Assembly (NCBI GenBank): GCA_000999095.1
Contig: LCFP01000006.1
Location: 1,823 to 65,822, forward strand
From: Candidatus Gottesmanbacteria bacterium GW2011_GWA2_43_14
GTDB lineage: Bacteria > Patescibacteriota > Microgenomatia > 2-02-FULL-39-11
Direction: 5' to 3'
Length of the DNA stretch: 64,000 nt
This document shows, one piece after another, positions 2,293 through 50,323 of the stretch. The translations under genes were made by a program, and so were the position numbers. Positions within the stretch are counted from its first letter, which is position 1. Each line of letters opens with the position of its first letter. Under the pieces are notes generated by a model. The model saw only the letters and a program-made list of their open reading frames with translations, was not told the DNA's origin and made no database searches.

Positions 2293-2922
2293 ATGGCAGC
2301 AAAATTTGTTGATCTTACTTTGACTTTGGACAATAAAACACCGGTTTTTCCCGGTGATCCGCCGGTTATCGTGGAGCCAATCGCCTCGCTGGAAAAAGAC
2401 GGTTGTTCGATCCACAGCTTCAGTTTTCCCGGACACTGTTCGACCCATCTGGATGCACCGGCCCATTTTATTGCCGGTGGCCTGAAAATCGATCAAATAC
2501 CAATGGAATGGCTGGTCGGGGAGGGAATCAAGATCAGTCAGCCCGAAAATACAAAGGTTATTGAACTGTCTGGGGATCTATTCAAAAGCAAGCCGAAAAT
2601 TGTTTTGATTCAGACAAACTATATCAATACTATTCAAAGTAAATCATACTTTACCGACCACCCGTTGCTTTCCGAAAAATCGGCCAAAATTCTGATTGCG
2701 GCCGGAGTGAAAATGGTCGGCATGGACTGGCCGAGTCCTGATAAAGAGCCGTTTAATATCCATAAGATTCTCCTTGCGAAAAACGTTTTGATCCTGGAAA
2801 ACGTCTGCAATCTCGATCTTTTGCCCGCATCAGGCTTCCGCGTCCATGTCCTGCCGTTGAAAAGCCCGACGGACGGTGCCCCGGCAAGAGTAATCGCGGA
2901 AATCATGGGGGAATCACTATGA
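2293..2922 (+). CDS. cyclase-family protein (kynurenine formamidase-like)
   Basis: Carries the FPGHCSTHLDAPAHF metal-binding signature of the putative cyclase/arylformamidase family. ATGA overlap with the next gene. Confidence 0.55.
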   Translation: MAAKFVDLTLTLDNKTPVFPGDPPVIVEPIASLEKDGCSIHSFSFPGHCSTHLDAPAHFIAGGLKIDQIPMEWLVGEGIKISQPENTKVIELSGDLFKSKPKIVLIQTNYINTIQSKSYFTDHPLLSEKSAKILIAAGVKMVGMDWPSPDKEPFNIHKILLAKNVLILENVCNLDLLPASGFRVHVLPLKSPTDGAPARVIAEIMGESL

Positions 2923-5618
2923 AATTTACAATCGATCCGAAGATTTTTGAGAAATATCCCGGGGTGGAGATAGGGGTAATCGTTATCAAAGGCATGGACA
3001 ATTCCGGCCGGGATGAAGGGATATTAAAGCTGTTGCGGATGGAGGAAGCCAACCAGAAAAAGCTGCTGGCAGAGACGGAATTGGGTTCATTGGCGGAAAT
3101 AGCTGCCTGGAGGGAGATTTACCGTTCATTCGGCTCCCACCCCAAAGACGACCGCTCTTCTATTGAAGCTCTTTTGAGGCGGGCAAGAGCCGGGAATAAG
3201 GAAATCCCGCATATCAACAAGCTGGTAGACCTTTATAATTATCTTTCCCTCAAACACCATTTGCCGGCCGGGGCTGAAGATCTAGATAAAATCAAAGGCG
3301 ACATCAGGCTGACTTTTGCTGACGGGTCTGAGGAAGGTAAGACCATCGGATCCGAACAGCCGGAAAAATGCGATGCCGGCGAGGTCTTTTACAGAGACGA
3401 TGAAAGCTTTATCTGCCGCAAGTGGAACTGGCGTGAAGCCGACAGGACCAAGATCGGCAAGGACAGCGGTAATGCGGTTCTGGTTATCGAAAAAGCTCCG
3501 CCTGTTTTCCGGGAAAAGTTAGAGGAGGCTTTGGCGGAAACAGAAGGACTTATAAAAAAGCACCTCAAGGCGGAAACGGAAATTTCCGTTTTGTCAGGGG
3601 ATATACAATCGATGAATCTTGTTTTCATCCCGTCTAAAAAAGAGGCGGTAAAACGGATGAAAGTTCCGCCGGTAAAAATCACCAACCCTCTACTTTCACA
3701 AGCGGAATCTTTCACAGCAGAAATAGTTAAGAACGTACTTTTTTCGGCTGTCAAAAAACTCTATCCTGAAAGCGAGATTAATTACTATGATATAAAACTA
3801 GAACATCCTTCTAATGAAAACTATGGGGACTACTCATCTAATATAGCCATGATTATGGCTTCTAAAATTAAAATCAAGCCTATTAAACTGGCTGAAAACA
3901 TTAGTAGGGAGCTAAATGACTATATAGGAAGAGGTCAATCGATATCATATATATCTCATAGTAAAGAATCTAAAGAGGTTGAATTCATTGTTTCAGATAT
4001 CCTGGAGAATTCAAATGGAGTGGTACCAGGCTTTATCAACCTGAAGCTGGCCGAAAAATTCCTTATCAGTCAAATGGGTGAAGTGCCAGATTCTAAAAAG
4101 AGCGTGAAAACGGTCAAAACAGACCCATTCTCTTACAAATTTCTTACGGGAAAAAAGTTGATTTTTGAATTTACCGACCCCAATCCTTTTAAGGAGTTTC
4201 ATATCGGGCACTTATACAGTAATGCCGTCGGCGAGACGATTGCCAGGACAAGCGAGGAGCTCGGAGCGGATGTCAGACGGGCCAATTATTTCGGGGATGT
4301 CGGGATGCATGTGGCAAAATCGATCTGGGGAATGAAGAAGCTGGACAAAAAAATGGAAGATAAATCCCTGGGGGAAAAAGTCAAATATTTGGGTGAAGCT
4401 TATGCTTTGGGGGCGACCGCTTACGGGGAGGACGATAAAGCCAAAGAAGAAATGACCAGAATAAATTTCCTGGTTTTTATTGCCGCCCAGGAGTATATGC
4501 AGAAGAAGATGAAGTGGATACCTCAGATTGATTACCGCCAGTTTATCCGGCCGGATGAAAAAGAGACAGAGGAAGTCGCCGCTTTGTTTGAAAAAGGCCG
4601 TGAATGGAGTCTGGCCTATTTTGAAAGCATTTATGAGCGGTTGGGAACAAAATTCGACTACTATTATCCGGAATCGATTGTCGGTGAATACGGCATGCAG
4701 ACAGTAAAGGATGCCCTGGAGAAGGGTATATTCGAAAAAAGCGACGGGGCAGTAGTTTTCCATGGTGAAAAATACGGACTGCATACCAGGGTTTTTGTTA
4801 ACGCTTTAGGCCTGCCGACTTATGAGGCCAAAGAACTGGGTTTGGCCCCGACAAAATATAAGGATTTTCAATATGATTTTTCGATGATCATAACGGCCAA
4901 GGAAATCAACGAATACTTCCAGGTGCTTCTCAAAGTACTTTCGTTTCTAAAGCCGGAATTGGCTGCCAAAACCCGGCATCTGGGCCACGGCATAGTCAGA
5001 CTGCCGGAAGGCAAAATGAGCTCGAGGACAGGCAAGATAGTCACCGGGGAAAAGCTTTTGGAGATGGTGAAGGCAAAGCTAAAAGAGCGACTGGATACAA
5101 CCAAATCAGACCAGTACACAAAAGAAGAATCCGAGCTCATTTTGGAGAAAACTGCGGTGGCCGCCGTCAAATACTCCATGCTGAAAGTCGCTCTGCCGGC
5201 AGACCTGGTTTTTGATTTGGAAAAATCGGTTAATTTCGACGGTGACAGCGGGCCATATCTCCAGTATACCTATGCCAGATGCCGGAGCGTTTTGAGAAAA
5301 GCTGAAGAATCAGGCGTCAAAAGAGCATCGGAAGCTCCGGTTGATTTGAATAAGGAAGAGAAGAATCTGCTGAGAACATTCTATAAATTCGAAGAAGCGG
5401 TTTTGGAAGCAGGCAAAAATTTCTCACCGTCAACAATTGCCGGCTACCTTTATGATTTGGCCCAGAAATACAATCTTTTTTACAGTAAACACTCAATACT
5501 CGGCAAGGGGAAGGCCCTACCGGCCACACAATTCCGCATAGCTTTGACACAAACTACTTCAGAAATAGTTAAAAAAGGTCTATGGCTGTTGGGGATTGAG
5601 ACAGTTGAGAAAATGTGA
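2919..5618 (+). CDS. argS: arginine--tRNA ligase with an N-terminal B3/4-like (COG3382-type) domain extension
   Basis: Residues ~250-899 contain the Arg_tRNA_synt_N-like segment (NYGDYSSNIAMIMASKI), HIGH (FHIGHLYSNAVGE), KMSSRTGK and the DALR anticodon-binding motif (GPYLQYTYARCRSVL). Residues 1-240 start MKFTIDPKIFEKYPGVEIGVIV, like stand-alone B3/4 tRNA-binding proteins. Confidence 0.8.
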   Translation: MKFTIDPKIFEKYPGVEIGVIVIKGMDNSGRDEGILKLLRMEEANQKKLLAETELGSLAEIAAWREIYRSFGSHPKDDRSSIEALLRRARAGNKEIPHINKLVDLYNYLSLKHHLPAGAEDLDKIKGDIRLTFADGSEEGKTIGSEQPEKCDAGEVFYRDDESFICRKWNWREADRTKIGKDSGNAVLVIEKAPPVFREKLEEALAETEGLIKKHLKAETEISVLSGDIQSMNLVFIPSKKEAVKRMKVPPVKITNPLLSQAESFTAEIVKNVLFSAVKKLYPESEINYYDIKLEHPSNENYGDYSSNIAMIMASKIKIKPIKLAENISRELNDYIGRGQSISYISHSKESKEVEFIVSDILENSNGVVPGFINLKLAEKFLISQMGEVPDSKKSVKTVKTDPFSYKFLTGKKLIFEFTDPNPFKEFHIGHLYSNAVGETIARTSEELGADVRRANYFGDVGMHVAKSIWGMKKLDKKMEDKSLGEKVKYLGEAYALGATAYGEDDKAKEEMTRINFLVFIAAQEYMQKKMKWIPQIDYRQFIRPDEKETEEVAALFEKGREWSLAYFESIYERLGTKFDYYYPESIVGEYGMQTVKDALEKGIFEKSDGAVVFHGEKYGLHTRVFVNALGLPTYEAKELGLAPTKYKDFQYDFSMIITAKEINEYFQVLLKVLSFLKPELAAKTRHLGHGIVRLPEGKMSSRTGKIVTGEKLLEMVKAKLKERLDTTKSDQYTKEESELILEKTAVAAVKYSMLKVALPADLVFDLEKSVNFDGDSGPYLQYTYARCRSVLRKAEESGVKRASEAPVDLNKEEKNLLRTFYKFEEAVLEAGKNFSPSTIAGYLYDLAQKYNLFYSKHSILGKGKALPATQFRIALTQTTSEIVKKGLWLLGIETVEKM

Positions 5619-5638: not shown

Positions 5639-6433
5639 ATGAGAAAGTATCTGCCCGTCCTAATATTTTTCATAAATCTACTGCTTCTGGGAAAAATCCA
5701 GGTGGTGGCACAGACACCTCCCAAAACAATCAAGCTGGGCACTTTTTCGCCTCCGCCTACCAGGACGCCTACCAGGACACCGACCAAAACCCCGACCAGG
5801 ACACCTACTTCGGTTGTGCCAACTATTACCGGCCAAATTCCGACTTCCTCTGCCACAGATTCTCCTGAACCCACCAATTCGGATGACGGAGGAGGGAATA
5901 ACGGCGGCGATCCTGCTGACTGCGCCAAAATCGGATTATCGATGTATGTGCCTCAGCCGCGTTTTCTTGAAAGTACGACCCTTTGTGAGCAGGGTACGAT
6001 CTGGCCACCTTACCTGCCTTCGTTTGTGCCTAGCAATCTGACCAATCTTGACAATGCCCTGGGCGGCCAGTTCTGGGTCCGTACGAACAGCATAAAGATA
6101 AAAAGCGGCATCACCGGCAACCTGGCATCTTTTTTGGAATATATGGAGAAGCAGCCGGGCTGTACGGTTTTTGTCGGCTACGGCTACCGTTCTTATGCCG
6201 AGCAGGAAGGTTTGTGGTACGGAAACGATTGCCCGACCAATCCGGGTTGCGGAGTGGCTCCCCCCGGCAAAAGCAGCCACCAGGCGGGAATTGCACTGGA
6301 CCTTTTTTGCGCTGAAATGATAGGATCTGATATAAACTTAAAAGTAGTACCGGCGGCGGCCATTACCAATGCCAAGAATTTTGATTTTATCCATCCCGTT
6401 TCCTGGGATACGCCGCATTTCATAGGATTATAA
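5639..6433 (+). CDS. secreted peptidase M15 (VanY/D-Ala-D-Ala carboxypeptidase-like) with a Pro/Thr linker
   Basis: Signal peptide, TPTRTPTRTPTKTPTRTPT linker, and a C-terminal YAEQEGLW...SSHQAGIALDL motif of the SxHxxGxAxD type found in M15 peptidases. Confidence 0.55.
   Translation: MRKYLPVLIFFINLLLLGKIQVVAQTPPKTIKLGTFSPPPTRTPTRTPTKTPTRTPTSVVPTITGQIPTSSATDSPEPTNSDDGGGNNGGDPADCAKIGLSMYVPQPRFLESTTLCEQGTIWPPYLPSFVPSNLTNLDNALGGQFWVRTNSIKIKSGITGNLASFLEYMEKQPGCTVFVGYGYRSYAEQEGLWYGNDCPTNPGCGVAPPGKSSHQAGIALDLFCAEMIGSDINLKVVPAAAITNAKNFDFIHPVSWDTPHFIGL
5755..5812. repeat. low-complexity Pro/Thr linker-coding repeat
   Basis: Repeated acc/ccg/acg codons encoding (TPTR/K)n. Confidence 0.6.
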
Positions 6434-6434
6434 A

Positions 6435-6755
6435 ATGAGAGAAATAAAAATATATACTTTGTTAGCTATTTTTGCAGTAGTTATGCTTTTGATAGTGTTT
6501 GGTGTTATATTCCTGTCCGGCACAGGTAAAGATGCAGAAAGAATAGAGGAGGCTGAAACTGAAAATGAATTTGTACCGCCACAGGATTTCGAGTACGACG
6601 AGAATTTAATTGAAGATTTTAATAACGCTCCCGTCAAAGTTGAATATGATTACACCCTCTCAAGCGGTGAAAAGATTACCATCCGCATCCCCGAAGGAGT
6701 CGATCCGCCTCCTCAGGCCGCAGTCGAGAAGATGTACAGGGAGAGGAAGGAGTAA
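6435..6755 (+). CDS. small membrane-anchored hypothetical protein
   Basis: The ORF starts 2 nt after the M15 peptidase stop. It has an N-terminal TM helix and an acidic tail. No recognisable domain. Confidence 0.35.
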   Translation: MREIKIYTLLAIFAVVMLLIVFGVIFLSGTGKDAERIEEAETENEFVPPQDFEYDENLIEDFNNAPVKVEYDYTLSSGEKITIRIPEGVDPPPQAAVEKMYRERKE

Positions 6756-6820
6756 AAATTAATATAACAATTTATTGACTCTTTTCTTAATTCGTCTTAA
6801 GCTGGAAATAACACCTGCCC

Positions 6821-7840
6821 ATGAGAGATTTTATTGCCCGGATTTTGATAAGCCGGATTGGCATCATTTTTTTATTGTTTATTCTGGTTCTCAGCCTGTT
6901 TGCCGGATACAGTGTTCTTTCCCGTCAAAAAGCACCGCAGCCTGAATATGTCTGCGGAGGCAAAAACTGTTTTGCCGGCTGCTGCGTCCGCGGCAAATGC
7001 CAGCAAAAAGGCATCAATATTGCCGGTTATACTTGTTTTGGTGAGAATAAGTGGGAAACGCCCGACAAAAAAGGTATTGCCTCCGGCACGCCCTATGCGG
7101 TCATAGATGCGGTCACGGGAAAAAGTTCTGTCCCTGATCCGGATGACCCGGCGACAGTGGTAGCCACAGTAGGGCAGGAGAGAATTTTCCAGAAAGACCT
7201 CGACAGCGAAATCTCGCTTTACCCGCCTCAATACAGTCCTGATATCAGAAAAATCCTGATCGATAAGATCAGTGAAGATTCGACACTTCTGCAGAAGGCA
7301 GCCAAAGAAGGAGATGTGGTTTTGGATGAGACTGTTTTTGATACGGTTGACAAGGATTACAGCAAACGGCTGGAGCTGGTCAAAGAAGTAAAAGGGATTT
7401 TTGATTCCCGCCAGAACAGTCTATCGGGCACAATCATCTCCATCTGGTTTTACAATGAGAAGATAGGGCCTTTGGGTTACGAGAAAGGCAAGCAGTTGGC
7501 CTTCCAGAAAATCGATGCCCTCCAGCGGAATGTCAAAAACGGCAATTTAACTTTGGAAGAAGCTGTTGATATCATAAAAAATGACAGGGAGCTGGAACAG
7601 ATTGACAAATCATACAAATCCAACGCTTCATTCCGTTTCGATGTCAGGGAAGGCCAAAAGATCAGCCTTGATCCCGGTTTTGACAGCCAGTTGTGGCAAC
7701 TGTCCGACGGGGATGTTTCCGATGTTTTTCTGGCCAAGGATATACCCGAGTATGATGCGCCGGCGGTTGATGCAGTCTATATGTTTGCCAGGATCGACCG
7801 TAGGCAAATTGCGGAAACCGTAAAGGAGCAGAATTTATGA
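6821..7840 (+). CDS. cassette copy A1: membrane-anchored protein with N-terminal Cys-rich motif and SurA/PrsA-N-like region
   Basis: TM helix, then CGGKNCFAGCCVRGKCQQKGINIAGYTCFGENKWETP, which is shared with ORF 8939. The downstream segment KILIDKISEDSTLLQKAAKEG resembles the SurA N-terminal chaperone domain (weak match). Confidence 0.45.
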   Translation: MRDFIARILISRIGIIFLLFILVLSLFAGYSVLSRQKAPQPEYVCGGKNCFAGCCVRGKCQQKGINIAGYTCFGENKWETPDKKGIASGTPYAVIDAVTGKSSVPDPDDPATVVATVGQERIFQKDLDSEISLYPPQYSPDIRKILIDKISEDSTLLQKAAKEGDVVLDETVFDTVDKDYSKRLELVKEVKGIFDSRQNSLSGTIISIWFYNEKIGPLGYEKGKQLAFQKIDALQRNVKNGNLTLEEAVDIIKNDRELEQIDKSYKSNASFRFDVREGQKISLDPGFDSQLWQLSDGDVSDVFLAKDIPEYDAPAVDAVYMFARIDRRQIAETVKEQNL

Positions 7841-8898
7841 AAAAAATAATCTTAACAGCAATCTTTTTGGGTGTGTTTTTCATCCCGCAAAAAGCCGAAG
7901 CCTATGCTCCGCCGGTCTTCGGCTACGTCAAAACCAAAACTGGCGCCCCGATTGCCGGAATAGCCATCAAATGGCAGGATGCGGAAAATAATTCCTGGTT
8001 CGTCTTTACCGATAATACGGGATATTTCCGCTACCCGGTTTATAACCTGATCAGTAAAAGTATCCGGAAGGATATGTATAACCACATGATTGATACAGAT
8101 ATGGACAGTCTTTCCGACAGCCGGGAAAACAGTATTTTGCCGGGAGACGACGAAGATAAAACCTATGGAGGATTCGGCTGCAGCACCAATCCGCATAAAA
8201 TCACAGCTGTCATGCCCAAAAGCTGGAAAGGAGCTTTTTCCGTACCACCACCGTTTGAGATGGCTCCCGGAGACGAACTCAACAATTCCATGGCTGAGGC
8301 TAAAGTGGTCGATATAATTTACGATCCTAACGCCATGCCTCCTGTTTCGGTTACTCCGACAGGAGTAAAGCCGCCTGTTTCGGTTACTCCTGCTTCCTCA
8401 TGCAACTGTGAAAGCATGACCGTCACCAATAATTTGAGAGTCGGGGAGTTGATTACGATAAGCACCAAAGCAAATACTCCAGTACCGGATTTAGCCGAAG
8501 TCAGGGAAATGGTTTATCACGTCGAGAAAAACGGAGTGGAAATCCTCAAGTCTTTGCCTTTGAAAGCTGAGGAAATTACCGGTTCATACGGCCGCTATCA
8601 AACATCCTGGAAATACCGGATTCCGACAGGAGCAGAATCACCTGGAGAATACCATGTCCATGCCGACATAATTTGTGCCAAAAAGACGGCTGACAACATA
8701 GATAGCGATAGCCGGCAAAGTCTTTGGTCGGGGATATTGGGTATGTTTTTTCAGCCGAACCCCATCTCTGCCCAGGATTGGACATCCGATGTGACCGTAG
8801 TTGCGCCTTCCGGCGTCAATTCGCTTCAGCTGGGGACTTTTCATCCGGTCGTAAACCTGAAATTGGGCTGTAAAGACATGTATTTTACCATCAGATAA
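7837..8898 (+). CDS. cassette copy B1: secreted protein with a conserved C-terminal domain shared with ORF 10212
   Basis: Signal peptide and ATGA overlap with A1. The C-terminal ~130 aa (MVYHVEKNGVEI...GRYQTSW...LQLGTFHPVVNLKLGCKDMYFTI) is paralogous to the C-terminus of ORF 10212. Confidence 0.5.
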   Translation: MKKIILTAIFLGVFFIPQKAEAYAPPVFGYVKTKTGAPIAGIAIKWQDAENNSWFVFTDNTGYFRYPVYNLISKSIRKDMYNHMIDTDMDSLSDSRENSILPGDDEDKTYGGFGCSTNPHKITAVMPKSWKGAFSVPPPFEMAPGDELNNSMAEAKVVDIIYDPNAMPPVSVTPTGVKPPVSVTPASSCNCESMTVTNNLRVGELITISTKANTPVPDLAEVREMVYHVEKNGVEILKSLPLKAEEITGSYGRYQTSWKYRIPTGAESPGEYHVHADIICAKKTADNIDSDSRQSLWSGILGMFFQPNPISAQDWTSDVTVVAPSGVNSLQLGTFHPVVNLKLGCKDMYFTIR

Positions 8899-8938
8899 GT
8901 ATTGACTGGGAAGCGAATAATTCATAAGCTGAAAATAG

Positions 8939-10201
8939 ATGAAACAGAAGCTTGTTGTTATTGCTTCGGTAGTTCTCCTAATTCTGCTGTCTGCCGCAGT
9001 CTTTTATAAATCGAAAAAACCTGTCGAGAGCATGCTTTGCGGAGCAGTTTCCTGTGAAAACGGCTGCTGCGTCAAAGGAAAATGCATTCCTAAAGGACTT
9101 GAAATAGCCGGTTATACCTGCCGTGAAAATAATACCTGGCAGACGCCTGAGGGTAAAATCGAAACAAAACTTCCGGAGGCTGTTTCCATTGCTGTCGGCC
9201 AGGCTCTCGAAGTTCCTGGTTTATTATCTTCTGAAAAAGCCCGTGAAATCGCCCAAAATATAGTCAGTTGGCTGGACGGCATGAAAAATGACAAGGGACA
9301 GTATTTTGCAAACGAAAACTGTGCTTCTGACGGCTTATGCCAGACTTCATCCACCATAGACAAACAAAGAGGAATTATCACAGTCTGGTCCAGATACCGC
9401 AATTATTTAGGCAGCCGAAATGCCCCCGAGATGGACTTGATTGATGCCGAACTGGCTACTTTGACTACTCCGGGAGTAGGCTCTCCGGCACAAAATGACT
9501 ATCTGAACTGTACTTTGATGTATGAACTCCATAAAAGCAATGTTTTTACACCTCAGCAAAAAAATAAAATTACTTCTATATGCAATGACAGTATATTCTA
9601 CGGGGAGGAGATGAATAACTACAACCAACGCTCCAAGTCCGATGAAGCATATTCAGCTGAACCTGCAGTCGAGCTTTTCCTGGAAGGCAAACCTGTAAAT
9701 ACAGGACTTAATGCAAATCCTGACAAGATGATTAAGTATTCATCGTATACGGCGGATATGGCCACTCTTTATATCTGGACCAAAGAAGCAAAAGCTTTGG
9801 AACTTGGCAAATATTTTTTCAATCTAGCCCTCGAGACGAAAAGCCAAGAACTTGAAAATACCGATGACTCTCTACTGGGCCTGGCTGCCTATAAGTTTTA
9901 TGAAGCAACCGGCGAGCAGAAATACCTGGAAGCATCCGGAAAGTTTATGGAAGAAAAATCAACCGGTTTAAAATGCTCAAATTTTGTCTATTGCGTCAAT
10001 TATTTGTATTTCCTCGACTATTATTCGGACAAAACAGATGATCCGGAGATCAAACTGAAGTCGGAAGAACTGTTTGCCATGCTGATGGCAAATTTTTATG
10101 ATTCCGGTAAAAATCTCTTTTATTATAAAAACGAAAACGGGATAAATTATTATCCGGTTGCTCAAAACAGCATCTTATCCGGAATTTTGGCAAATTATTA
10201 G
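8939..10201 (+). CDS. cassette copy A2: membrane-anchored protein with the same N-terminal Cys-rich motif
   Basis: TM helix plus CGAVSCENGCCVKGKCIPKGLEIAGYTCRENNTWQTP. The remainder of the protein is different (no match recognised). Confidence 0.45.
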   Translation: MKQKLVVIASVVLLILLSAAVFYKSKKPVESMLCGAVSCENGCCVKGKCIPKGLEIAGYTCRENNTWQTPEGKIETKLPEAVSIAVGQALEVPGLLSSEKAREIAQNIVSWLDGMKNDKGQYFANENCASDGLCQTSSTIDKQRGIITVWSRYRNYLGSRNAPEMDLIDAELATLTTPGVGSPAQNDYLNCTLMYELHKSNVFTPQQKNKITSICNDSIFYGEEMNNYNQRSKSDEAYSAEPAVELFLEGKPVNTGLNANPDKMIKYSSYTADMATLYIWTKEAKALELGKYFFNLALETKSQELENTDDSLLGLAAYKFYEATGEQKYLEASGKFMEEKSTGLKCSNFVYCVNYLYFLDYYSDKTDDPEIKLKSEELFAMLMANFYDSGKNLFYYKNENGINYYPVAQNSILSGILANY

Positions 10202-10211
10202 TCATTAATAG

Positions 10212-12545
10212 ATGAAATTTAAATTTATTCTCAGCCTTTTTTTTCTATTTCTCACTCTTTTTTCTGTTGTCAGTATTATTGACAATTCAACATATGCTGT
10301 AGGATATGGTTGTCCGGCCGGTTGGGGTTGCAGCGGATGCAGCAGCGGATGCACCGGGGAGGCTTGTACCCAAGCAAATTGCTGCTATGCTAATAATCCT
10401 AATAATCCTGACGGAACTAAAAAAACTCCTCCTCCAGCCTGTTTGTCATATTGTCAGGCTGAATGTTTCGGTTTGTGGGAAGATTCCTGCGGCCCGGGTA
10501 AAAAAATCACAGATGAAGAAACCTTTAACTGCGGAGCCTGCGACAATGACGTAACCTGTTACAAATGCGGGCCTGATGACGAGGATGAACCTGGAGGTCC
10601 TACCAGTCCGCCGCCTCCGCCTCCTTCCAATACCCCTGTCCCGCCGCCGCCGACTAAAACACCGACGCCTGCGTCTCCGACAAATACTCCTACCAAAACA
10701 CCGACACCGACAATAACTCCTATACCGCGACCGGGCCTTTGCGAAAGTGAAACCATAGAGAAGTCGACAGTGTTTCCCGGTGACGGCTTTATTTTAAGTT
10801 CTGAAGCGGCTGAGGATGTTCCCCAATTTTATTATGCGTTTTATAACCTGGATAACCTTTACGGACCCGGCAACCCCAAACCTTTCTGTGTCAAAAATGT
10901 GGGGGACAATACCACTCCGTCAAGCAATTGTCCTGCCGGATCATCCCATCTGATATATAAAGACCCCGATACTTCTCCCAGGAATGTCGGTGCAGTCACT
11001 TTGTTTTATGAAGGTGTTTTTGTGGAAGACTGGGCAAACATAAATAAGGTACCCAGTAAAGTATCCATAAATGCGTACTTTATAGACAGCGAAGGCAGAC
11101 TATCAGCTTCAGACCCGGATTGTGTCGTTACTTTAAATAAAGGGACAGGCCCTCCGCCGCCACCCGGAACGCCGCCATACGGAACGCCGCCACCCGGACC
11201 CGGAACCCCCGGTTATACTCCGCCCCCGGGACCAGGAACGCCTCCATACGGAACGCCTCCTCCAGGAGGACCTGCCTGTAACCAACCATGCAATCCCTAC
11301 CAGCCATTCGACTGTCCTGAGGATTGCCCGTCATGTCCTTTTGTCAATCCCAAATGTGTGCCCGATAAACTTCCTCCCGGAGGACCCCAGTGCGGCGAGC
11401 CCTGCAATCCCGACAAGCCCAATGAATGTCCTGACGATTGTCCTTTCTGTCCTGATGCCAATCCGATCTGTGTCAGCGATGATGACTTCCCACCGTCTCC
11501 CACACCCGGAGCGCCGGGATGCGGCGAGCCGTGTAATCCGGATGAGGCATTTGATTGTCCTGATGAATGTCCGTCCTGTCCGACGGACAATCCGATCTGT
11601 GTGCCTGACAAACCGCCGCTCGGCGGCCCTCAGTGCGGCGAGCCCTGCAATCCGGACCAGCCCAGCGACTGCCCGGATGATTGCCCGTTCTGCCCGGTTA
11701 CTAACCCGATTTGCGTAGAAGATGATGATATTGCTCCGACTCCAACAGGAGCTCCTTCCTGCGGAGAACCATGCAGTCCTGAAACGCCGTATGACTGTCC
11801 TGAGGATTGCCCGTCATGTCCTGAAGTCAATCCTGAATGCGTGCCTGCTGAATCGCCTCCCGGAGGACCTCAGTGCGGCGAGCCCTGCAATCCGGACCAG
11901 CCCAATGAATGCCCTGACGAATGTCCTTTCTGTCCTGATGCCAATCCCCAATGCGATACTGAAGAAGAACCGCGCGGACCGACACCGCCTGCAGCCTGTG
12001 ACTGCGACAGCGTAACTTATGCCGGCAATTTCATCAGCGGACAGACCGTCACCGTAACCACCTTTGCCGTTTCCTTATTCCCGGATACAACCGAAGTCCG
12101 GACCATGACTTACCATGTGGAAAAAGACGGTGTGGAAATAGGTCTTTCCGATCCGGTCCCGGCAGAGGAGATATCCGGCTCAAACGGCCGCTACCAGACA
12201 CAGTGGGATTTCATTGTACCTGAAGGAGAGGATGCCGCAGGCCATTACCGCATCTGGGTAAAAATCATCTGCGGACGGATCACAGCCTCTGTCCTGGGCA
12301 CTGAAACGCCCCAAAAAACAACGTTCCTGGACAACCTGGTCAATTTCCTGTCCAACATATTTTTCTTAAACAAAAGAAACAGTTTACAGCCTCTGGCTGT
12401 AGCAACACCTACAGGCATTCCCGATTTCGGCAAGAGCAAACCGACAGTCCTGGCCCCGACAGCCAAATCGCTGCAGCTGGGGACTTTCCATCCGGTAACC
12501 AACCTTAAAGTGGGATGCAAGGAAATCAGCTTCGATATCCTCTGA
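10212..12545 (+). CDS. cassette copy B2: large secreted Cys/Pro-rich repeat protein with the shared C-terminal domain
   Basis: Signal peptide, Cys-rich N-terminal region and a PT linker. About six CGEPCNPDxPxxCPDDCP(F/S)CPxxNPxCV modules. C-terminus MTYHVEKDGVEI...GRYQTQW...LQLGTFHPVTNLKVGCKEISFDI. Confidence 0.55.
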   Translation: MKFKFILSLFFLFLTLFSVVSIIDNSTYAVGYGCPAGWGCSGCSSGCTGEACTQANCCYANNPNNPDGTKKTPPPACLSYCQAECFGLWEDSCGPGKKITDEETFNCGACDNDVTCYKCGPDDEDEPGGPTSPPPPPPSNTPVPPPPTKTPTPASPTNTPTKTPTPTITPIPRPGLCESETIEKSTVFPGDGFILSSEAAEDVPQFYYAFYNLDNLYGPGNPKPFCVKNVGDNTTPSSNCPAGSSHLIYKDPDTSPRNVGAVTLFYEGVFVEDWANINKVPSKVSINAYFIDSEGRLSASDPDCVVTLNKGTGPPPPPGTPPYGTPPPGPGTPGYTPPPGPGTPPYGTPPPGGPACNQPCNPYQPFDCPEDCPSCPFVNPKCVPDKLPPGGPQCGEPCNPDKPNECPDDCPFCPDANPICVSDDDFPPSPTPGAPGCGEPCNPDEAFDCPDECPSCPTDNPICVPDKPPLGGPQCGEPCNPDQPSDCPDDCPFCPVTNPICVEDDDIAPTPTGAPSCGEPCSPETPYDCPEDCPSCPEVNPECVPAESPPGGPQCGEPCNPDQPNECPDECPFCPDANPQCDTEEEPRGPTPPAACDCDSVTYAGNFISGQTVTVTTFAVSLFPDTTEVRTMTYHVEKDGVEIGLSDPVPAEEISGSNGRYQTQWDFIVPEGEDAAGHYRIWVKIICGRITASVLGTETPQKTTFLDNLVNFLSNIFFLNKRNSLQPLAVATPTGIPDFGKSKPTVLAPTAKSLQLGTFHPVTNLKVGCKEISFDIL
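11275..11965. repeat. about three tandem copies of a ~240-nt coding repeat (Cys-rich module pairs)
   Basis: The nucleotide strings gagccctgcaatcc(c/g)ga(c/a)(c/a)agcccaatgaatg(t/c)cctgacga(t/a)tgtcctttctgtcctgatgccaatcc recur near 11398 and 11880. The stretch near 11640 is a related but more diverged copy (...agcccagcgactgcccggatgattgcccgttctgcccggttactaaccc). So the period is about 240 nt. Confidence 0.6.
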
Positions 12546-12557
12546 ATGAGTAGGATT

Positions 12558-13202
12558 TTATTCTACTTTTATGCGATCAAAAGGAACACCCGTTTTGGTA
12601 TTGTTGATACCCAGGAACATGCGAAGTCCGCCGAACCCGGCATTTTTATAGCCGCTGATCAGCCTTTTCGGATCGATAAACGGTGATAATGTAGCCCAGC
12701 CGGAGTCAGGCAATTGCATTACGAGATAATTCTCAATATCTGATATGGGAATTTTTATTCTCAGGAAATATAATTTCGACCCTTCGGGCATTTCAGGATG
12801 GTTAATTATATCGAGAAGTTTTCCTGAGTTGAGAGTCAAGGTATCTCTCTTGACCGGTTTTTGGGAATCTGAAATTAAGAAGGATTCCTGACCGTTCAGA
12901 TATCGGACATCGCCGTTTTTGATAATATATGCCTTGGGAAAATTCCCTAACCACATGACAGCTTTATCAGTGGCAGACCCGTTGGGTCCGATTATCATGC
13001 TTAAATCACGCTTTAGTCCTTCATGCACTATAATTCCATCTCCAGTCAGCCATATGCCGCCTCTCAGGTTACCCAAATCCAAATTATGGAAGTAAAGATC
13101 AGGATAAACAGCCCTCAGAATGGTTCGGCCATGGGTAACTCTGATCCCTAATTTTTCTGGACTTAAATGAGAGTCAGGAATATTCTGTTCCAGATTTTTC
13201 AT
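12558..13202 (-). CDS. hypothetical protein
   Basis: ATG at 13202 (MKNLEQ...). The longer track ORF would overlap the upstream holin-like gene. No recognisable motif. Confidence 0.4.
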   Translation of the reverse strand: MKNLEQNIPDSHLSPEKLGIRVTHGRTILRAVYPDLYFHNLDLGNLRGGIWLTGDGIIVHEGLKRDLSMIIGPNGSATDKAVMWLGNFPKAYIIKNGDVRYLNGQESFLISDSQKPVKRDTLTLNSGKLLDIINHPEMPEGSKLYFLRIKIPISDIENYLVMQLPDSGWATLSPFIDPKRLISGYKNAGFGGLRMFLGINNTKTGVPFDRIKVE

Positions 13203-13560: not shown

Positions 13561-13625
13561 AATGAAATTATATCATTGACGAACCCGCGTTGCATAACCG
13601 TGATTCATATTTTAATATTTCTTGT

Positions 13626-15047
13626 ATGACAGCTACCAATATTAAGTCTCTTTTACTGCTTTTATTGATTATTTTTATGGGAGTTGTGTTAAGGTTTTAC
13701 CGGATAAATACTCTGGCCACCTTCAGGAGCGACCAGGCGATTGAACTGAATGGAGCCTATGAGATATCCCGGGGCAAGTTTTCCCTGATAGGGATAAAGA
13801 CTTCGAATTCCGAGATTCGCAACGGTGCGGTCATGTATTATTTGACTGTCCCTTTTCTCCTTTTGTTTGAAAACCATCCGCTGGCCGGCAGTGTTTTGCA
13901 GACAATGCTTTCATTGGCTACTGCAGCCGTGCTCTATTTACTCCTGGGTAAGGAGAATAAAAGAACTGCTTTGACCGCGGCCTTTCTGGTTGCTGCCTCT
14001 GCCCTCCTGGTCCGTTTTTCCCGGCAAACCATGCTGGCTTTCTATCCATTGTTTTTCTCAGGCTTTGCTTTATGGCTTTTTTCCAAACTGAATGAAAAAT
14101 TCGACAAAAAATCAGTCTTTGCTCTGGGGTTAATCCTGGGGTTCATGCTGCAAATCCATTACAGTACTTTTACGGTGGTTTTATCAGCTTTGCTTTTTCC
14201 CTTTCTGTTTTTACGAAAATATCTGAAAAACTATTTCCTGCTGATAGTACCGGGTTTTCTCATTGGTTTTTTGCCGATGCTGGTTTTTGAGTTGCGGCAT
14301 GAATTTTTCAACACCAAAATGTTATGGGCTTTCGTATCGTCTTCAAGTTCTGCTCCAATGGCTTCTTTCAATCACTTTGTTTACTGGCAAAAAGTCGTGG
14401 CCGGCTTCTTTTTCGGGGAAAATTTTGTTTTTGCAGGAATATTCATCATATGTCTGCTTCTTTGGCTGACCCGGCGAAGATCTGCTTTAAAACAGATTGA
14501 AAAGATATCACTTCTTGCTATTGCTTCAAATGTCCTTTTCGGTTTGGTATTTGTCAAAACATATACGCCTCATTACGCAGTAGCAGCGGTGCCCGCTTTG
14601 GTAGCCATGACGGCCATATTTATCACCGGGGTTGCCGGACGCCTTGCACCTCTGTTACTGGCAATCTTTTTTTTAATAAATTTTCCCGGTTACGGTTTTT
14701 CCGACAATCACGGCTGGACCATGGCTGACGGCTGGAACCAGTCCGGTATTGAAAAAGCTGCTGACACAATTTATGAAGACGCCCTAAACGGGCAATTCAA
14801 TGTAGCCATGTTGGTAGATGCGGAAAATCAGGGATGGCCGCTCCGATATTTTCTTAAAATCCGCGGGAAAGAACCGCAGGCTGCCGATAAATACGACCGG
14901 GCGGAAACCCTTTACCTGGTTTCTGAGCCGGGGATCGACCTGGATAATATTAAGATGTGGGAATTAACTTCGTTTGGAGCCTATACGATCGGCAATCAAT
15001 GGGAGATCCAAAACGGCTATGTCCTATATAAACTGCAGAAAATTTAA
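13626..15047 (+). CDS. polytopic membrane protein, putative GT-C (ArnT/PMT-like) glycosyltransferase
   Basis: About 11 predicted TM helices. Loose ArnT/GT39-like architecture, no diagnostic motif. ATG at 13626 is preferred over the TTG at 13590. Confidence 0.4.
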   Translation: MTATNIKSLLLLLLIIFMGVVLRFYRINTLATFRSDQAIELNGAYEISRGKFSLIGIKTSNSEIRNGAVMYYLTVPFLLLFENHPLAGSVLQTMLSLATAAVLYLLLGKENKRTALTAAFLVAASALLVRFSRQTMLAFYPLFFSGFALWLFSKLNEKFDKKSVFALGLILGFMLQIHYSTFTVVLSALLFPFLFLRKYLKNYFLLIVPGFLIGFLPMLVFELRHEFFNTKMLWAFVSSSSSAPMASFNHFVYWQKVVAGFFFGENFVFAGIFIICLLLWLTRRRSALKQIEKISLLAIASNVLFGLVFVKTYTPHYAVAAVPALVAMTAIFITGVAGRLAPLLLAIFFLINFPGYGFSDNHGWTMADGWNQSGIEKAADTIYEDALNGQFNVAMLVDAENQGWPLRYFLKIRGKEPQAADKYDRAETLYLVSEPGIDLDNIKMWELTSFGAYTIGNQWEIQNGYVLYKLQKI

Positions 15048-16778: not shown

Positions 16779-17951
16779 ATGGATAATTTAAAAAAAGCTT
16801 TACTGATCTTCTTAACCGTTAATTTATGCCTCTATTTATTTATGTGGCAATTTCACTGGCTGGTGCCGTTTAATCAAAATTTATACATCAACAGTTCACA
16901 TCATTATCTGACTGACGAGCGGATCCTGTCGGGAAATTATAATTTTTTGAGAGCTTTGGGACAATATGACGCCCAATGGTATTTGAAGATTGCCGACAAT
17001 GGTTATCCGCCGAACCCCCAGACTGTTGAAATGGAGAATAAGACTGTGATGGACGGCTTGACGTATGCGTTTTTCCCTCTTTACCCTCTATTGATCTCCA
17101 TTCTCAATATGGGCATCAATAACGTTGAGCTGGCTGCTTTTATCCTGGGGCAGATCCTGGCTACGGCTGCGTTTTGCAGCCTTTATTTTGTCGTCAGCCG
17201 GATCTACGGTGAAAAAATTGCCTTTCGGACATCCCTCCTGCTATTTCTTTTTCCCTTCAGTATCTTTTTCCGCAGCTATTATACGGAGAGCCTTTTTTTG
17301 ATGATTTTAGTCTGGTACGGATATTTTCTGGTCAAAAAACAATGGTGGGGAGTGGCGGTGGCAAATGCCCTCATGATGGTGACCCGGCCGACCGGATTGT
17401 TTCTGGTGCCTGTAACAACCGTATTTCTTATTGCCGACTGTCTGAAGAATAAAACCAAGCTGAAGGAGATGATAATAGTTCCTCTGATTACCGGATTGCC
17501 ATTTATCAGCTGGATGATATTTAATTTCAAATCAACCGGTGATCCCTTTTATTGGAAAAACGTCCAAAGTTCGTGGTATTTGACTTCATCTCCTTTGGTT
17601 ATCATCAAAGTTAATTTATATCTTCTGAAAAACTTTTTCGCCCTGCCATTCCACAGTTTTCATACATCAAGGGTTGATATTTTGGCAGTTATGTACGTAG
17701 GATTTATATTGATCGCCGGATTCCGGTTTCTAAAAAGGGAGTGGTGGCTGATGTCCCTTATGATGTGGCTGCCTCTTTTAATTCTCAAAGATACGATGTC
17801 TTTTTCCCGCTACCAGTCAGTCTCTTTTCCGTTGTTTGTCTATCTGGCCGGGAATATGAACAATAAATGGTTTACGGCCGTTTCTGTCATCCTCGGAGCC
17901 TTACTTTTCGCAACTTCACTCTATTTCATCAACTGGCACTGGATCGGCTAG
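16779..17951 (+). CDS. integral membrane protein (possible GT-C-fold mannosyltransferase-like)
   Basis: At least 10 TM helices. No diagnostic motif recognised. Confidence 0.35.
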   Translation: MDNLKKALLIFLTVNLCLYLFMWQFHWLVPFNQNLYINSSHHYLTDERILSGNYNFLRALGQYDAQWYLKIADNGYPPNPQTVEMENKTVMDGLTYAFFPLYPLLISILNMGINNVELAAFILGQILATAAFCSLYFVVSRIYGEKIAFRTSLLLFLFPFSIFFRSYYTESLFLMILVWYGYFLVKKQWWGVAVANALMMVTRPTGLFLVPVTTVFLIADCLKNKTKLKEMIIVPLITGLPFISWMIFNFKSTGDPFYWKNVQSSWYLTSSPLVIIKVNLYLLKNFFALPFHSFHTSRVDILAVMYVGFILIAGFRFLKREWWLMSLMMWLPLLILKDTMSFSRYQSVSFPLFVYLAGNMNNKWFTAVSVILGALLFATSLYFINWHWIG

Positions 17952-22484: not shown

Positions 22485-23924
22485 ATGCCAGGGGAAGTGC
22501 CAGGACCGAGCGGAGAAGAGGAACAAAAGGTAATAGGTCAGGAGGCCGGTGATACGCTACCGACAAAACGAAGACGGTTCCTGAAGGTCGTCTTAGGAGG
22601 GACGGGAGCAGCAGGTCTCAGCGTTTTGGGTTATTACCTTACTAAGTACGGTATGCAATTTTTCAGTGACCCGCAAGATACAGATTACTTGGAAGGCACC
22701 CCGGTAACCCGAAAAACCTTTCCTTCAGCAGTCAGGACATCAGTTCCCAATGATGAGAATACTCCCCCTCCGCCATCTTCAACAAGTACACCTGCGGCAA
22801 CTCTGAACAAAACCGTCACTCCTACGACGTTTGATGAGGCTATGGCAACACCGGCAGTTGAAGTCCGAGAACTGTCACAAGAGCAAAAGGACTTTTTTTT
22901 CGGGCAATTTTTAGCTGACTATGATGTTTTTAAGGAAAGACATACCAGGATTATCTTTGACGGGGAAAGGCAGGTCTATTTCAATGACGACGGAGACATC
23001 TCCATGGAATCGCAGGTATTCGGCGAGCTGTTTGCCCATTTTGCCCAAGATGACGAAGCTTTTCATCAACTGACTAAACTGGACCGGAATTATATTGACG
23101 AGCGCGGATTGGCACCGTGGCTGATCTATGCCAAAGGAGGAGAGGACGAGACGGTCGTTACAGGTGTCATGATGTCCATGGCCTGGGTAAGGCTGCAGCG
23201 TCCGGAGCCTGAATATCAGGAAGAAGGCAGAAAAATCCTTGAGGGAATAAAAGAGTTTTCCATCGACAAGCAATACCTTATCCCCAAACCTTTTCATTGG
23301 GAGGGATTTGACGGGACAGCCAATCCTGCCAGTCCAAGCCCTTTATTTTTGGAAGATTTTGCCAAGGTTGATCCGTATTGGGCTGAAGTAGCAGCCAATA
23401 CCCGGGGTCTGATGGACAAGATCGGAAATCAGATAGAAGAAGGCTCTTTGGCTTCTTTTCCGACTTTGGTTGATATGGCGGAGGGGAAACCTGCTTATGA
23501 CGCTGATCTCGGGGAGCCGCACATCGATTACGACATTGCCTATACGACCTTGAACCAGTTGATGGGACTGCTTTATTGCGAGGACGAGGCAGCCCGGAAA
23601 AACGCCCGGGAGCAGTTGATTCTTTTGGACAGGTTTTATTATGGTAAGATAGCCAGACAGGAAGACAACGGAGATACGACTTATGACATCGAAGGACTGA
23701 AAGACGGGTATTTACTAAACGGAGAAATTGATGAAAGCGAGACAAGATATTCAAGAACCGCCTGGACCATGGCTGCCGCAGCAGCTTCTCTGACATCAGA
23801 GGATAGCGAATACCGGAAGTTTATGCTGGATGAGGTCCTGCCCAACCTGCCGACAAGTTACTCTTTTAACCAGTATATTCACACTTTTACCAATCTGGTC
23901 TTGAGCGGACGGATGAAGGACTAA
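22485..23924 (+). CDS. Tat-signal secreted protein, weak GH8-like motifs
   Basis: The N-terminal RRRFLKVVLGGTGAAGL looks like a twin-arginine signal. SMESQVFGEL and AYDADLGEP loosely resemble the GH8 SEGQSYGM and ATDADL signatures (weak). Confidence 0.35.
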   Translation: MPGEVPGPSGEEEQKVIGQEAGDTLPTKRRRFLKVVLGGTGAAGLSVLGYYLTKYGMQFFSDPQDTDYLEGTPVTRKTFPSAVRTSVPNDENTPPPPSSTSTPAATLNKTVTPTTFDEAMATPAVEVRELSQEQKDFFFGQFLADYDVFKERHTRIIFDGERQVYFNDDGDISMESQVFGELFAHFAQDDEAFHQLTKLDRNYIDERGLAPWLIYAKGGEDETVVTGVMMSMAWVRLQRPEPEYQEEGRKILEGIKEFSIDKQYLIPKPFHWEGFDGTANPASPSPLFLEDFAKVDPYWAEVAANTRGLMDKIGNQIEEGSLASFPTLVDMAEGKPAYDADLGEPHIDYDIAYTTLNQLMGLLYCEDEAARKNAREQLILLDRFYYGKIARQEDNGDTTYDIEGLKDGYLLNGEIDESETRYSRTAWTMAAAAASLTSEDSEYRKFMLDEVLPNLPTSYSFNQYIHTFTNLVLSGRMKD

Positions 23925-29213: not shown

Positions 29214-29951
29214 ATGAAAGTAAACAGGGAAGTTATCAGGTTTGTCGTCTTCCGTACCCTGGGTAATTTTCTGGTTTTAGCTTCACTTTACGCCATCGGC
29301 AGGACGTTGGGCCCGGCTGCCTGGCTTGAAGCGAAATACAGGGTAAATCAATTCAGAAACGTCCGTTACGAGATTGCCTGGCAGGGTGTTCCGGCCCGGC
29401 CGGACAAAGAAATTACGGATACAGTCAAGCCTACTCCATTTGTGTCCAATACCACCTTTTTCGGGAAATTGGCCGGAGGCGACAAGATAGAATTTCTGGA
29501 GCCGGTTTCCTCCAGATTCGGCATCATCATCCCGAAAATCGGAGCCAATGCACCGATTGCGCCCAATGTGGATGCCGGTAATCCTGAGGCCTACCTGGAA
29601 GCCTTGAAAACGGGTGTGGCACATGCTGCCGGAACTGTCTTTCCGGGTGTGCCCGGCAATATCTTCCTGTTTGCCCATTCGACGGACGATTTTTGGAACG
29701 TCGGCCGCTACAACGCAATTTTTTATCTGCTGAAAGAGCTGGAGAGAGGTGATGAAGTGGATGTTTTCCTTAACGGCAAAAGGCACATCTACAGGGTAAC
29801 CGACAAAATAATTGTCAATCCGGATGAAGTGGAGTATCTGACCAGGCAAACCAATTTTGAACAACTGACTTTACAGACCTGCTGGCCTCCCGGAACAACC
29901 TTTAAAAGACTGCTTGTTCTGGCCGTACCGGAAAAAGACTACCGCGATTAG
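29214..29951 (+). CDS. sortase-family transpeptidase
   Basis: N-terminal membrane anchor and a C-terminal LTLQTCWPP segment (TLxTC catalytic Cys motif). FLFAHST is a His-containing segment. Confidence 0.65.
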   Translation: MKVNREVIRFVVFRTLGNFLVLASLYAIGRTLGPAAWLEAKYRVNQFRNVRYEIAWQGVPARPDKEITDTVKPTPFVSNTTFFGKLAGGDKIEFLEPVSSRFGIIIPKIGANAPIAPNVDAGNPEAYLEALKTGVAHAAGTVFPGVPGNIFLFAHSTDDFWNVGRYNAIFYLLKELERGDEVDVFLNGKRHIYRVTDKIIVNPDEVEYLTRQTNFEQLTLQTCWPPGTTFKRLLVLAVPEKDYRD

Positions 29952-36707: not shown

Positions 36708-36816
36708 ATAGATTGCCACAAGGCTCTGTATTATAACTGAGATGACGAATTTTAAATATACCCCGGGGAAAAGCTTCTTTCTTCCTATTTGGGGGTTAAT
36801 ATTTTATACTGGATGT

Positions 36817-43622: not shown

Positions 43623-43677
43623 CGCAGTTGAATGTTCCTGTTGACTTTCCCTCAGCTTAATTTTTTAATGGAAACAG

Positions 43678-44781: not shown

Positions 44782-44805
44782 AAATAACAAGCTTTTTGGC
44801 GAAAG

Positions 44806-45345: not shown

Positions 45346-45348
45346 TTT

Positions 45349-48279: not shown

Positions 48280-48282
48280 ATA

Positions 48283-49455: not shown

Positions 49456-49472
49456 GGAATGTTCCTGTTATT

Positions 49473-50276: not shown

Positions 50277-50323
50277 CTCCTTCAATCAAAGCATAAAACA
50301 GGGTCGCTAATCAAGAAGAATAT

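Follow-up and report, generated by a model that had tools for sequence, protein, structure and literature searches.

A tandem array of six-cysteine modules forms the central part of a 777-amino-acid (aa) protein encoded by Candidatus Gottesmanbacteria bacterium GW2011_GWA2_43_14, a member of the candidate phyla radiation (CPR). The corresponding gene is located in a 64,000-nt stretch of contig LCFP01000006.1 (assembly GCA_000999095.1, positions 1,823 to 65,822), which is called the window here and to which all coordinates refer. The repeat greatly exceeds what chance would produce, and it is a true coding sequence under selection. The reading that we favor, and to which we would give an even chance, is that the array is a disulfide-stapled, proline-stiffened and strongly acidic stalk that lengthens or shortens as modules are gained or lost.

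Anatomy and conservation of the array

Tandem Repeats Finder reports a period of 243 nt with 2.7 copies and 73% matches at positions 11284-11944, and translation resolves this repeat into six modules of 27 aa starting at aa 356, 394, 437, 475, 517, and 555 (nt span 11277-11954). Both agree with an initial annotation of this DNA, which had described a tandem repeat of about 240 nt with six modules at 11275-11965. The alternation of CPSCP (S-type) and CPFCP (F-type) modules noted there is found in the translated modules, and the linkers VPDKxPPGGPQ and V(S/E)DDD..PTPxGAP match its proline-rich spacers. The module itself was described as having four cysteines and three prolines; it contains seven or eight prolines and six invariant cysteines with the spacing C-x3-C-x7-C-x3-C-x2-C-x6-C, and the consensus string given in that annotation also shows six. 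The 240 aa of the array comprise 36 Cys (15%), 65 Pro, 48 Asp+Glu, 5 Lys+Arg, and no His, with a pI of 4.05 and a net charge of about -43. There is one CxxC per module, CxxxC is present, and neither CxC nor CC occurs.

The 18 distinct modules, collected from at least five gene variants, do not vary at 12 of the 27 positions (C1, C5, P7, C13, P14, C17, P18, C20, P21, N24, P25, and C27). The cysteine spacing 3-7-3-2-6 is likewise found in 18 of 18, and the remaining positions are mostly D, E, N, or Q. Compared with each other, the modules are 78-94% identical at codon positions 1 and 2 versus 33-78% at position 3. This divergence at third positions of a conserved protein sequence shows purifying selection on the modules.

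Distribution and copy number of the module

No Pfam-A family was found for the whole 777-aa protein by hmmscan (E ≤ 10), and no NCBIfam family for the protein or the array (E ≤ 1). The only match of the di-module profile among PDB sequences, the N-terminus of a copper ATPase with its CPxC metal-binding motif, is not significant (E = 0.45), and an exhaustive search of 1.84 billion representative proteins with a profile of seven di-modules returned only the protein's own ortholog cluster. At the DNA level, scans of one genome per species for 185,579 species and of the JGI metagenomes placed the module in Gottesmanbacteria alone. The Pfam, NCBIfam, PDB, and profile searches thus bear out the statement that no homolog could be recognized. 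EGF, anaphylatoxin, LDL-A, TSP3, granulin, and similar domains are ruled out by the Pfam and NCBIfam results; the first two had been named in the initial annotation as well-known domains that might account for the module.

The module is present in six copies in the window, in four copies each in the P0002 and P0003 (RIFCSPLOWO2_01_FULL_42_22) types, in two copies in the RIFCSPHIGHO2_01_FULL_40_15 type, and in at least two in contig L012. One contig, whose C-terminal protein sequence is identical to that of the RIFCSPHIGHO2_01_FULL_40_15 type, has three copies, the third being an exact copy of the neighboring module. Duplication can affect one module (37 aa) or a di-module of about 80 aa. With counts of 6/4/4/3/2, and with C-terminal regions that are identical in the two- and three-module versions, the number of copies differs from species to species and apparently also within a population, in keeping with the variable repeat number anticipated earlier.

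The linker preceding the array is 44, 88, and 66 aa long in the three orthologs compared, while the total spacer (linker plus array) measures 284, 253, and 231 aa. The total is kept because the proline-rich linker is longer where there are fewer modules, which fits a length constraint. This linker is itself a short-period tandem repeat (window 11155-11198; 5' ends of contigs L007 and L009; aa 300-375 of P0002), being (GTPPP)-like in the window and (GGSGTPPP)n or (YPPDGYPT)n in other relatives. Its repeat number varies between near-identical contigs, and several short-read contigs terminate in this repeat or inside the array.

P0008, which is more distantly related, has only one module, located at the equivalent position directly before the shared C-terminal domain. 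This module is not proline-rich, has the spacing 3-7-6-2-6 and contains no CPxCP motif. The six-cysteine framework therefore seems older than the proline-rich version of the Gottesmanbacteria.

In contig MFJH01000048.1 (L004; GCA_001779135.1) an intact orthologous open reading frame (ORF) of about 720 aa lies at 2300-4555. The deposited annotation comprises its last 146 aa only (A2781_00905), with antisense ORFs over the proline- and cysteine-rich part, indicating that gene callers mishandle this gene family.

Module structure

An AlphaFold2 model of a di-module was built on a shallow alignment of seven rows. The predicted local distance difference test score (pLDDT) reaches 76-79 in each of the two modules but stays under 50 in the linkers, a picture that would suit the beads on proline linkers proposed in the initial annotation. 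The model places isolated β-bridges next to Cys II, V, and VI, at module residues 4, 19, 26, and 28. The only Foldseek match of this model is the cystine-knot peptide 8sdp_Y, with an insignificant E-value of 9.3.

The inhibitor cystine knot (ICK) consensus is CX3-7CX3-6CX0-5CX1-4CX4-13C, and loop 2 of the module (7 residues) lies at or just past this classical range. The knottin-like character proposed earlier is compatible with the cysteine spacing and the bridge positions, but it is not established, given the insignificance of the sole structural match. We consider the knottin fold a lead that is compatible with the model and unproven.

One further spacing was noted within the module: C13-C17-C20 matches the CxxxCxxC of radical-SAM clusters. 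It was taken as a coincidence in view of the signal-peptide-like N-terminus, the lack of a twin-arginine motif, and the small size of the modules (27 aa). A precursor of a ribosomally synthesized and post-translationally modified peptide was also rejected: a radical-SAM gene is found near ortholog P0002, but the window and L004 lack a counterpart.

Domain organization and flanking domains

The features of the protein and of its gene cluster are listed in Table 1. The N-terminal segment, modeled as a helix at aa 2-21, reads as a signal peptide, and neither a twin-arginine motif nor a lipobox could be read from the N-terminal sequence. This segment would direct export and be cleaved off, consistent with the extracellular protein assumed by the initial annotation.

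Table 1. Features of the 777-aa protein, its module array and the neighboring cluster genes.
Feature	Position in the window	Strand	Characteristics and basis
777-aa protein gene	10212..12545	+	ORF list; NCBI UV73_C0006G0012, database protein 100% identical, Candidatus Gottesmanbacteria (CPR/Microgenomates) groundwater genome bin
Putative signal peptide, aa 1-30	10212..10301	+	MKFK + hydrophobic core + ..STYA|VG; sequence reading, cleavage site inferred
N-terminal Cys-rich head, aa 31-124	10302..10583	+	15 Cys; Cys counts, ortholog comparison
Pro/Thr-rich linker 1, aa 125-174	10584..10733	+	22 Pro in 51 aa; pLDDT <50
Mid β-sandwich domain, aa 175-318	10734..11165	+	Motif FYNLDNLYGPGNPKP; 4 Cys; pLDDT 91-97
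Pro/Gly-rich linker 2, aa 319-355	11166..11276	+	15-nt short-period repeat at 11155-11198 (Tandem Repeats Finder)
Array, aa 356-595	11277..11996	+	Three di-module units (243, 240, 237 nt): six modules and linkers
Module 1, S-type	11277..11357	+	CNQPCNPYQPFDCPEDCPSCPFVNPKC
Module 2, F-type	11391..11471	+	CGEPCNPDKPNECPDDCPFCPDANPIC
Module 3, S-type	11520..11600	+	CGEPCNPDEAFDCPDECPSCPTDNPIC
Module 4, F-type	11634..11714	+	CGEPCNPDQPSDCPDDCPFCPVTNPIC
Module 5, S-type	11760..11840	+	CGEPCSPETPYDCPEDCPSCPEVNPEC
Module 6, F-type	11874..11954	+	CGEPCNPDQPNECPDECPFCPDANPQC
C-terminal β-sandwich domain, aa 596-692	11997..12287	+	CxC...YQTxW...YRIW..C; pLDDT 80-91, six strands
Conserved C-terminal tail, aa 693-777	12288..12542	+	Amphipathic helix (FLDNLVNFLSNIFFL), linker, then SLQLGTFHPVxNLKxGCKExxFxI; invariant Cys; from alignments
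Cluster partner	6821..7840	+	N-terminal transmembrane segment, 6-Cys motif, weakly SurA/PrsA-like region; LIC12922 PDB profile match E = 0.46, not significant
Cluster partner	7837..8898	+	N-terminal signal-like segment, weak CarboxypepD_reg match, C-terminal domain and tail as in the 777-aa protein
Cluster partner	8939..10201	+	N-terminal transmembrane segment, same 6-Cys motif, helical domain weakly similar to (α/α)6 barrels

Of the 59 cysteines of the protein, 36 belong to the array and 15 to the head, and the mid and C-terminal domains have 4 each; the total is just below the "more than 60" reported initially. The cysteine-dense N-terminal region pointed out at the same time is present as GCPAGWGCSGCSSGCTGEACTQANCCYAN at aa 33-61. 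The head evolves rapidly between orthologs, and its cysteine count is odd in three out of three cases (15, 13, and 17; P0002 and P0003 included). A hairpin at aa 98-120 is the only part of the head modeled with a pLDDT of 67-84. Head residues 27-67 showed a weak resemblance to snake-venom phospholipase A2 in a PDB sequence search (E = 0.004). This similarity was rejected because the protein has NCCYANN instead of the catalytic motif CCxxHDxC, and because P0002 and P0003 do not conserve the stretch.

The best Foldseek match of the mid domain is the reeler domain of F-spondin (E = 8e-6, TM-score 0.5), besides NPC2/ML and CARDB. The domain recurs in the metagenomic or metagenome-assembled proteins P0004-P0007 and P0009, P0005 being encoded by the same genome, and in none of these did a Pfam family exceed the threshold. 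Two of them (P0006, P0009) have a hydrophobic, transmembrane-like C-terminal end and one (P0007) has a C-terminal dockerin (Pfam E = 5e-4). As transmembrane and dockerin ends are interchangeable in these homologs, analogy suggests the C-terminus as the attachment end of the 777-aa protein, and the array would by position be a spacer between the attachment and distal domains. At the equivalent position after the mid domain (aa ~485-610), P0006 and P0009 contain two copies of a different, eight-cysteine module (CGYxPCxxxxxxCxxGxxCxxxxxGxxYCSxPEYxxRC....CC), followed by a Pro/Gln-rich linker and the transmembrane-like end.

The C-terminal domain is paralogous to the C-terminus encoded by the upstream gene 7837-8898 (39% identity) and is 27% identical to that of P0008. 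The β-sandwich and tail (SLQLGTFHPVxNLKxGCKxxxFxI, with an invariant Cys) are shared by window 7837-8898, window 11997-12542, and P0008, and could represent a new attachment or sorting module. In the model the tail comprises a helix (aa 705-717) and two strands (753-759, 771-776), all of low pLDDT. The C-terminus (...LAPTAKSLQLGTFHPVTNLKVGCKEISFDIL) lacks the hydrophobic segment and basic tail of an LPXTG-type sortase signal. Two sortase genes are present in the window, at 29214-29951 (+) and 35937-36719 (-); their substrates lie elsewhere, since the 777-aa protein has no such signal.

A proposed adjustable stalk and its alternatives

According to the stalk model, the six modules would be autonomous mini-domains strung together by short proline-rich or acidic linkers. 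In each of them, three disulfides would probably staple the chain within the module, and the invariant Cys-Pro and Asn-Pro dipeptides would stiffen it. Together with the preceding Pro/Gly linker, the array would form a semi-rigid, strongly acidic, and presumably protease-resistant spacer of 230-285 aa, holding the distal head and the Ig-like reeler-type domain away from a C-terminal attachment domain on the CPR surface. Recombination between repeats would alter the length of the stalk by duplication or deletion of modules or di-module units. Disulfide formation and pairing, rigidity of the array, C-terminal anchoring, and the spacer function are all inferred. A homogeneous fiber, as one form of the surface fiber considered in the initial annotation, is disfavored, as the array accounts for 240 of 777 aa and has a spacer position between two confidently predicted β-sandwich domains. 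Large cysteine-rich extracellular proteins have been noted in CPR bacteria before, and a role in rigidity or attachment was proposed for them (PMC4736985).

Several points weigh against the stalk model. The strict conservation of 12 out of 27 residues exceeds the apparent need of a passive spacer and makes a binding or cross-linking role possible. The disulfides are deduced from sequence statistics and a shallow-alignment model, only two of the five AlphaFold2 di-module models reached a pLDDT of about 70, and the pLDDT of the array in the full-length model is about 35. The anchoring role of the C-terminal domain is a matter of positional analogy only. The organisms are anaerobes from a suboxic aquifer, where extracellular free thiols or metal thiolates are conceivable. 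Finally, none of the 53 ORFs of the window is a Dsb, MdbA, or VKOR gene; a Dsb/VKOR oxidative folding system had been proposed as something to look for.

An unlikely alternative is that the array acts as a hinge-like interchain cross-linker, in which CP(F/S)CP and other cysteines bond parallel chains or envelope proteins, yielding covalent oligomers or a cross-linked surface layer in the manner of the CPxCP core of the IgG1/IgG3 hinge or of Cys/Pro-rich proteins of the cornified envelope and keratin-associated type. The invariant CPxCP is similar to the core of the IgG hinge (CPPCP/CPRCP), and IgG3 has a hinge of tandem repeats with a copy number that varies between alleles. Cysteine totals are odd in the whole protein (59), in the ortholog heads, and in the paralog encoded at 7837-8898 (5). 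These odd counts leave at least one cysteine available for an intermolecular bond, and their recurrence in the heads and the cluster paralog implies a conserved unpaired cysteine. The low score of the array in the monomeric full-length model would also be in line with a cross-linker. However, the odd cysteine lies in the head, whereas the array has exactly six per module, the di-module forms compact beads in a monomer model, and the module of P0008 keeps the same six-cysteine framework without CPxCP.

We likewise think it unlikely that the array is a multivalent binding array, whose modules would be small ligand-binding or inhibitor domains (e.g., a knottin-type protease inhibitor or an adhesin) providing avidity for a host cell or mineral. 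Its architecture is that of the secreted cysteine-rich repeat proteins (SCREPs; PMC6262176, PMC9885460), a class defined in PMC6262176 by a signal peptide and two or more homologous cysteine-rich domains in tandem; the 777-aa protein has a signal-like N-terminus followed by six homologous six-cysteine modules. SCREPs are common in bacteria, most prokaryotic ones have unrecognized domains, and bacterial linkers are more often disordered (PMC6262176, PMC9885460). The ICK-compatible cysteine spacing and the strict conservation of 12 of 27 residues would suit binding domains, and CPR cells depend on host attachment, for which cysteine-rich proteins have been proposed (PMC4736985). On the other hand, most of the variable positions exchange one acidic or polar residue for another and form no distinct hypervariable or reactive-site loop, the array is internal between folded domains rather than at a free end, and the compensation of fewer modules by a longer proline linker suggests that length, not valency, is what counts.

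Probable disulfide bonding of the array

The criterion of an even cysteine count, which reportedly goes back to Dutton et al. in 2008, was applied to the 53 ORFs of the window, with the cysteine-containing proteins split into exported and cytoplasmic ones. The count was even in 16 of the 20 exported proteins but in 5 of the 17 cytoplasmic ones (Fisher p = 0.0025); PMC4597128 refers to the principle. Apart from a sortase and an M16 peptidase, the only exported window proteins with an odd count are the 777-aa protein and the product of 7837-8898. Homologs of the mid domain have either both C226 and C240 or neither, and all retain C177 and C304; the four cysteines of the C-terminal domain are retained in all paralogs. 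The even-cysteine bias of the exported proteins argues for disulfides over metal thiolates, and on the evidence of sequence a disulfide-bonded array appears much more likely than a metallothionein-like state. The disulfide-rich nature assumed in the initial annotation is thus likely, given this bias and the paired gain and loss of cysteines in the neighboring domain. CPR genomes are reportedly enriched in MdbA-like oxidoreductases adjoining VKOR (bioRxiv 10.1101/335083), and a DsbA/Thioredoxin_4 gene is located three genes downstream of P0008.

It is quite improbable that the array is an extracellular metal or cation sponge, in which metallothionein- or zinc-knuckle-like thiolates and/or the 48 acidic residues would bind Cu, Zn, Cd, Fe, or Ca2+/Mg2+. 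The cysteine content with CxxC and CxxxC, the net charge, the anoxic habitat, the weak copper-ATPase profile match, and the neighboring cation transporter genes MgtE and CorA would all be in line with it. Yet that match is not significant, the array has no histidine, only one CxxC per module, and none of the CxC/CC clusters typical of metallothioneins, and the signal-like N-terminus without twin-arginine motif argues against export with a pre-bound cofactor. The even-cysteine signature of exported proteins also speaks against it, and the MgtE/CorA synteny is found in relatives with other genes in between, so that there is no specific link. The metal binding suggested by the initial annotation is disfavored for these reasons; the acidic residues may still bind Ca2+, which would not conflict with the stalk model.

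The chance that the repeat is an expansion made by assembly, or a non-coding low-complexity stretch, is negligible: several metagenome contigs of relatives do break within or just upstream of the array and the NCBI annotation of one ortholog is limited to its last 146 aa, but the di-module units are only 69-75% identical in DNA with a longest exact repeat of 37 nt, all 777 codons form an open frame, synonymous sites have diverged while the protein sequence was kept, and intact orthologous ORFs occur in at least six independent assemblies, so that the assembly artifact that the initial annotation had allowed for does not apply.

Gene cluster and neighborhood

The gene of the 777-aa protein is the last of four tightly spaced genes, which are separated by a 4-nt overlap and then by gaps of 40 and 10 nt. 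All predicted products have N-terminal hydrophobic segments and are therefore probably extracytoplasmic. The product of 8939-10201 shows weak PDB profile matches to Lin0763, GH9, GH76, and GH127; it has homologs in contigs L001 (33% identity, E = 7e-71) and L002. In these contigs, homologs of the cluster partners, that of the 6821-7840 product included, adjoin the relatives of the 777-aa protein. A six-cysteine motif, CGxxxCxxGCCVxGxCxxKxxxxAGYTC, follows directly after the transmembrane helix on the extracytoplasmic side in 6821-7840, 8939-10201, and L001 1778-3178. A promoter and terminator scan of 6300-12900 gave counts equal to those of shuffled sequence.

Taken together, these genes might encode an undescribed CPR surface-attachment system, a reading that we consider distinctly unlikely as a whole. 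The array would be its adjustable stalk within a four-part cluster, consisting of membrane-anchored SurA/PrsA-like and (α/α)6-like proteins that share the N-terminal six-cysteine motif and of two secreted proteins that share the new C-terminal β-sandwich-plus-Cys-tail domain. This domain would replace transmembrane or dockerin anchors, the single conserved unpaired cysteine would covalently link the secreted proteins to each other or to the envelope, and the module would represent a new family of bacterial cystine-knot-like folds restricted to Gottesmanbacteria.

At 42267-61334, twelve secreted-looking proteins, encoded consecutively or nearly so, end in a type I dockerin (PF00404). Their other parts comprise CBM96, CARDB, PQQ β-propeller, sulfatase+PKD, Big_9/cadherin-like, GH5/39-like, β-lactamase fold, and DUF4185 regions. 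They prompted us to consider the 777-aa protein as a cohesin-bearing scaffoldin, which was rejected since it has no Pfam Cohesin match and the top 50 Foldseek matches of its model, which are reeler, ML, CARDB, and Ig-like folds, include none. A scan of the 53 window ORFs (two in NCBIfam only) gave no cohesin partner.

Two PMT_2 (GT39/ArnT-like) membrane glycosyltransferases are encoded near the gene (13590-15047 and 16779-17951); that they O-glycosylate the Pro/Thr-rich linkers of secreted proteins is speculative. Proteins of 479 and 742 aa (22485-23924 and 23972-26200) have twin-arginine-like N-termini (RRRFLKVV and RRDFLRLA) and no Pfam family. The arginyl-tRNA synthetase at 2919-5618 contains an N-terminal B3/4 domain (PF03483, E = 3e-23), an unusual fusion, as this domain is normally found in the PheRS β subunit.

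Significance

CPR bacteria (Patescibacteria) are tiny and thought to live attached to other cells, and their surface proteins are mostly unannotated. The locus offers a compact, testable example that combines lineage-specific folded domains, proline-rich linkers, and a new six-cysteine mini-domain of changing copy number. What is new is the module family, with no detectable relatives beyond a few Gottesmanbacteria, its copy-number variation, and the conserved cluster with a new C-terminal domain. The tandem secreted cysteine-rich architecture (PMC6262176, PMC9885460) and cysteine-rich extracellular CPR proteins (PMC4736985) are already known. If the module is a disulfide-stapled rigid bead, it would be a new bacterial mini-protein scaffold, it would indicate that oxidative folding is active outside the cytoplasm of an anaerobic CPR lineage, and it would explain the broken short-read assemblies and the mis-annotation of these genes. 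If the array is a spacer only, it would be an ordinary solution in a new sequence.

Comparison with known systems

A close parallel of the single module is the knottin/ICK family, with about 27-30 residues, six cysteines, and loops of 3-7-3-2-6 that fit or nearly fit the ICK consensus. The modeled β-bridges flank the cysteines where the ICK sheet lies, and tandem linked modules are also known from the spider toxins DkTx and Hi1a. Unlike knottins, the modules are extremely proline-rich and acidic, match no Pfam family (E ≤ 10), knottin-type families included, and are embedded in a 777-aa multidomain bacterial protein rather than forming a free peptide. EGF-like, TNFR-CRD, LDL-A, and TSP type 3 modules are also small, cystine-stabilized, often acidic, and arranged in tandem, and serve as rod-like stalk spacers in eukaryotes. 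They differ in cysteine spacing and loop content, none of them is matched in Pfam at the same threshold, and the module has no Ca-binding consensus.

The IgG3/IgG1 hinge shares Cys-Pro-x-Cys-Pro in a proline-rich rigid spacer between globular domains. It is not homologous. The hinge cysteines form interchain bonds of a dimer in a region without a folded bead, while the module has six cysteines and a predicted compact fold.

At the level of the whole protein, the SCREPs collected in ScrepYard likewise combine a signal-like segment with tandem homologous disulfide-rich domains and linkers. They are an architecture class and not a homology family, and the repeats here make up one third of the protein and are flanked by unrelated globular domains. 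The cysteine-rich proteins of CPR Peregrinibacteria (Anantharaman et al., 2016; PMC4736985) resemble the 777-aa protein in their groundwater CPR origin, signal peptides, very high cysteine content, and strain-level variation. They are larger (1,655 aa on average) and weakly resemble Myxococcus cysteine-rich repeats, and no sequence relationship between them and the module was detected.

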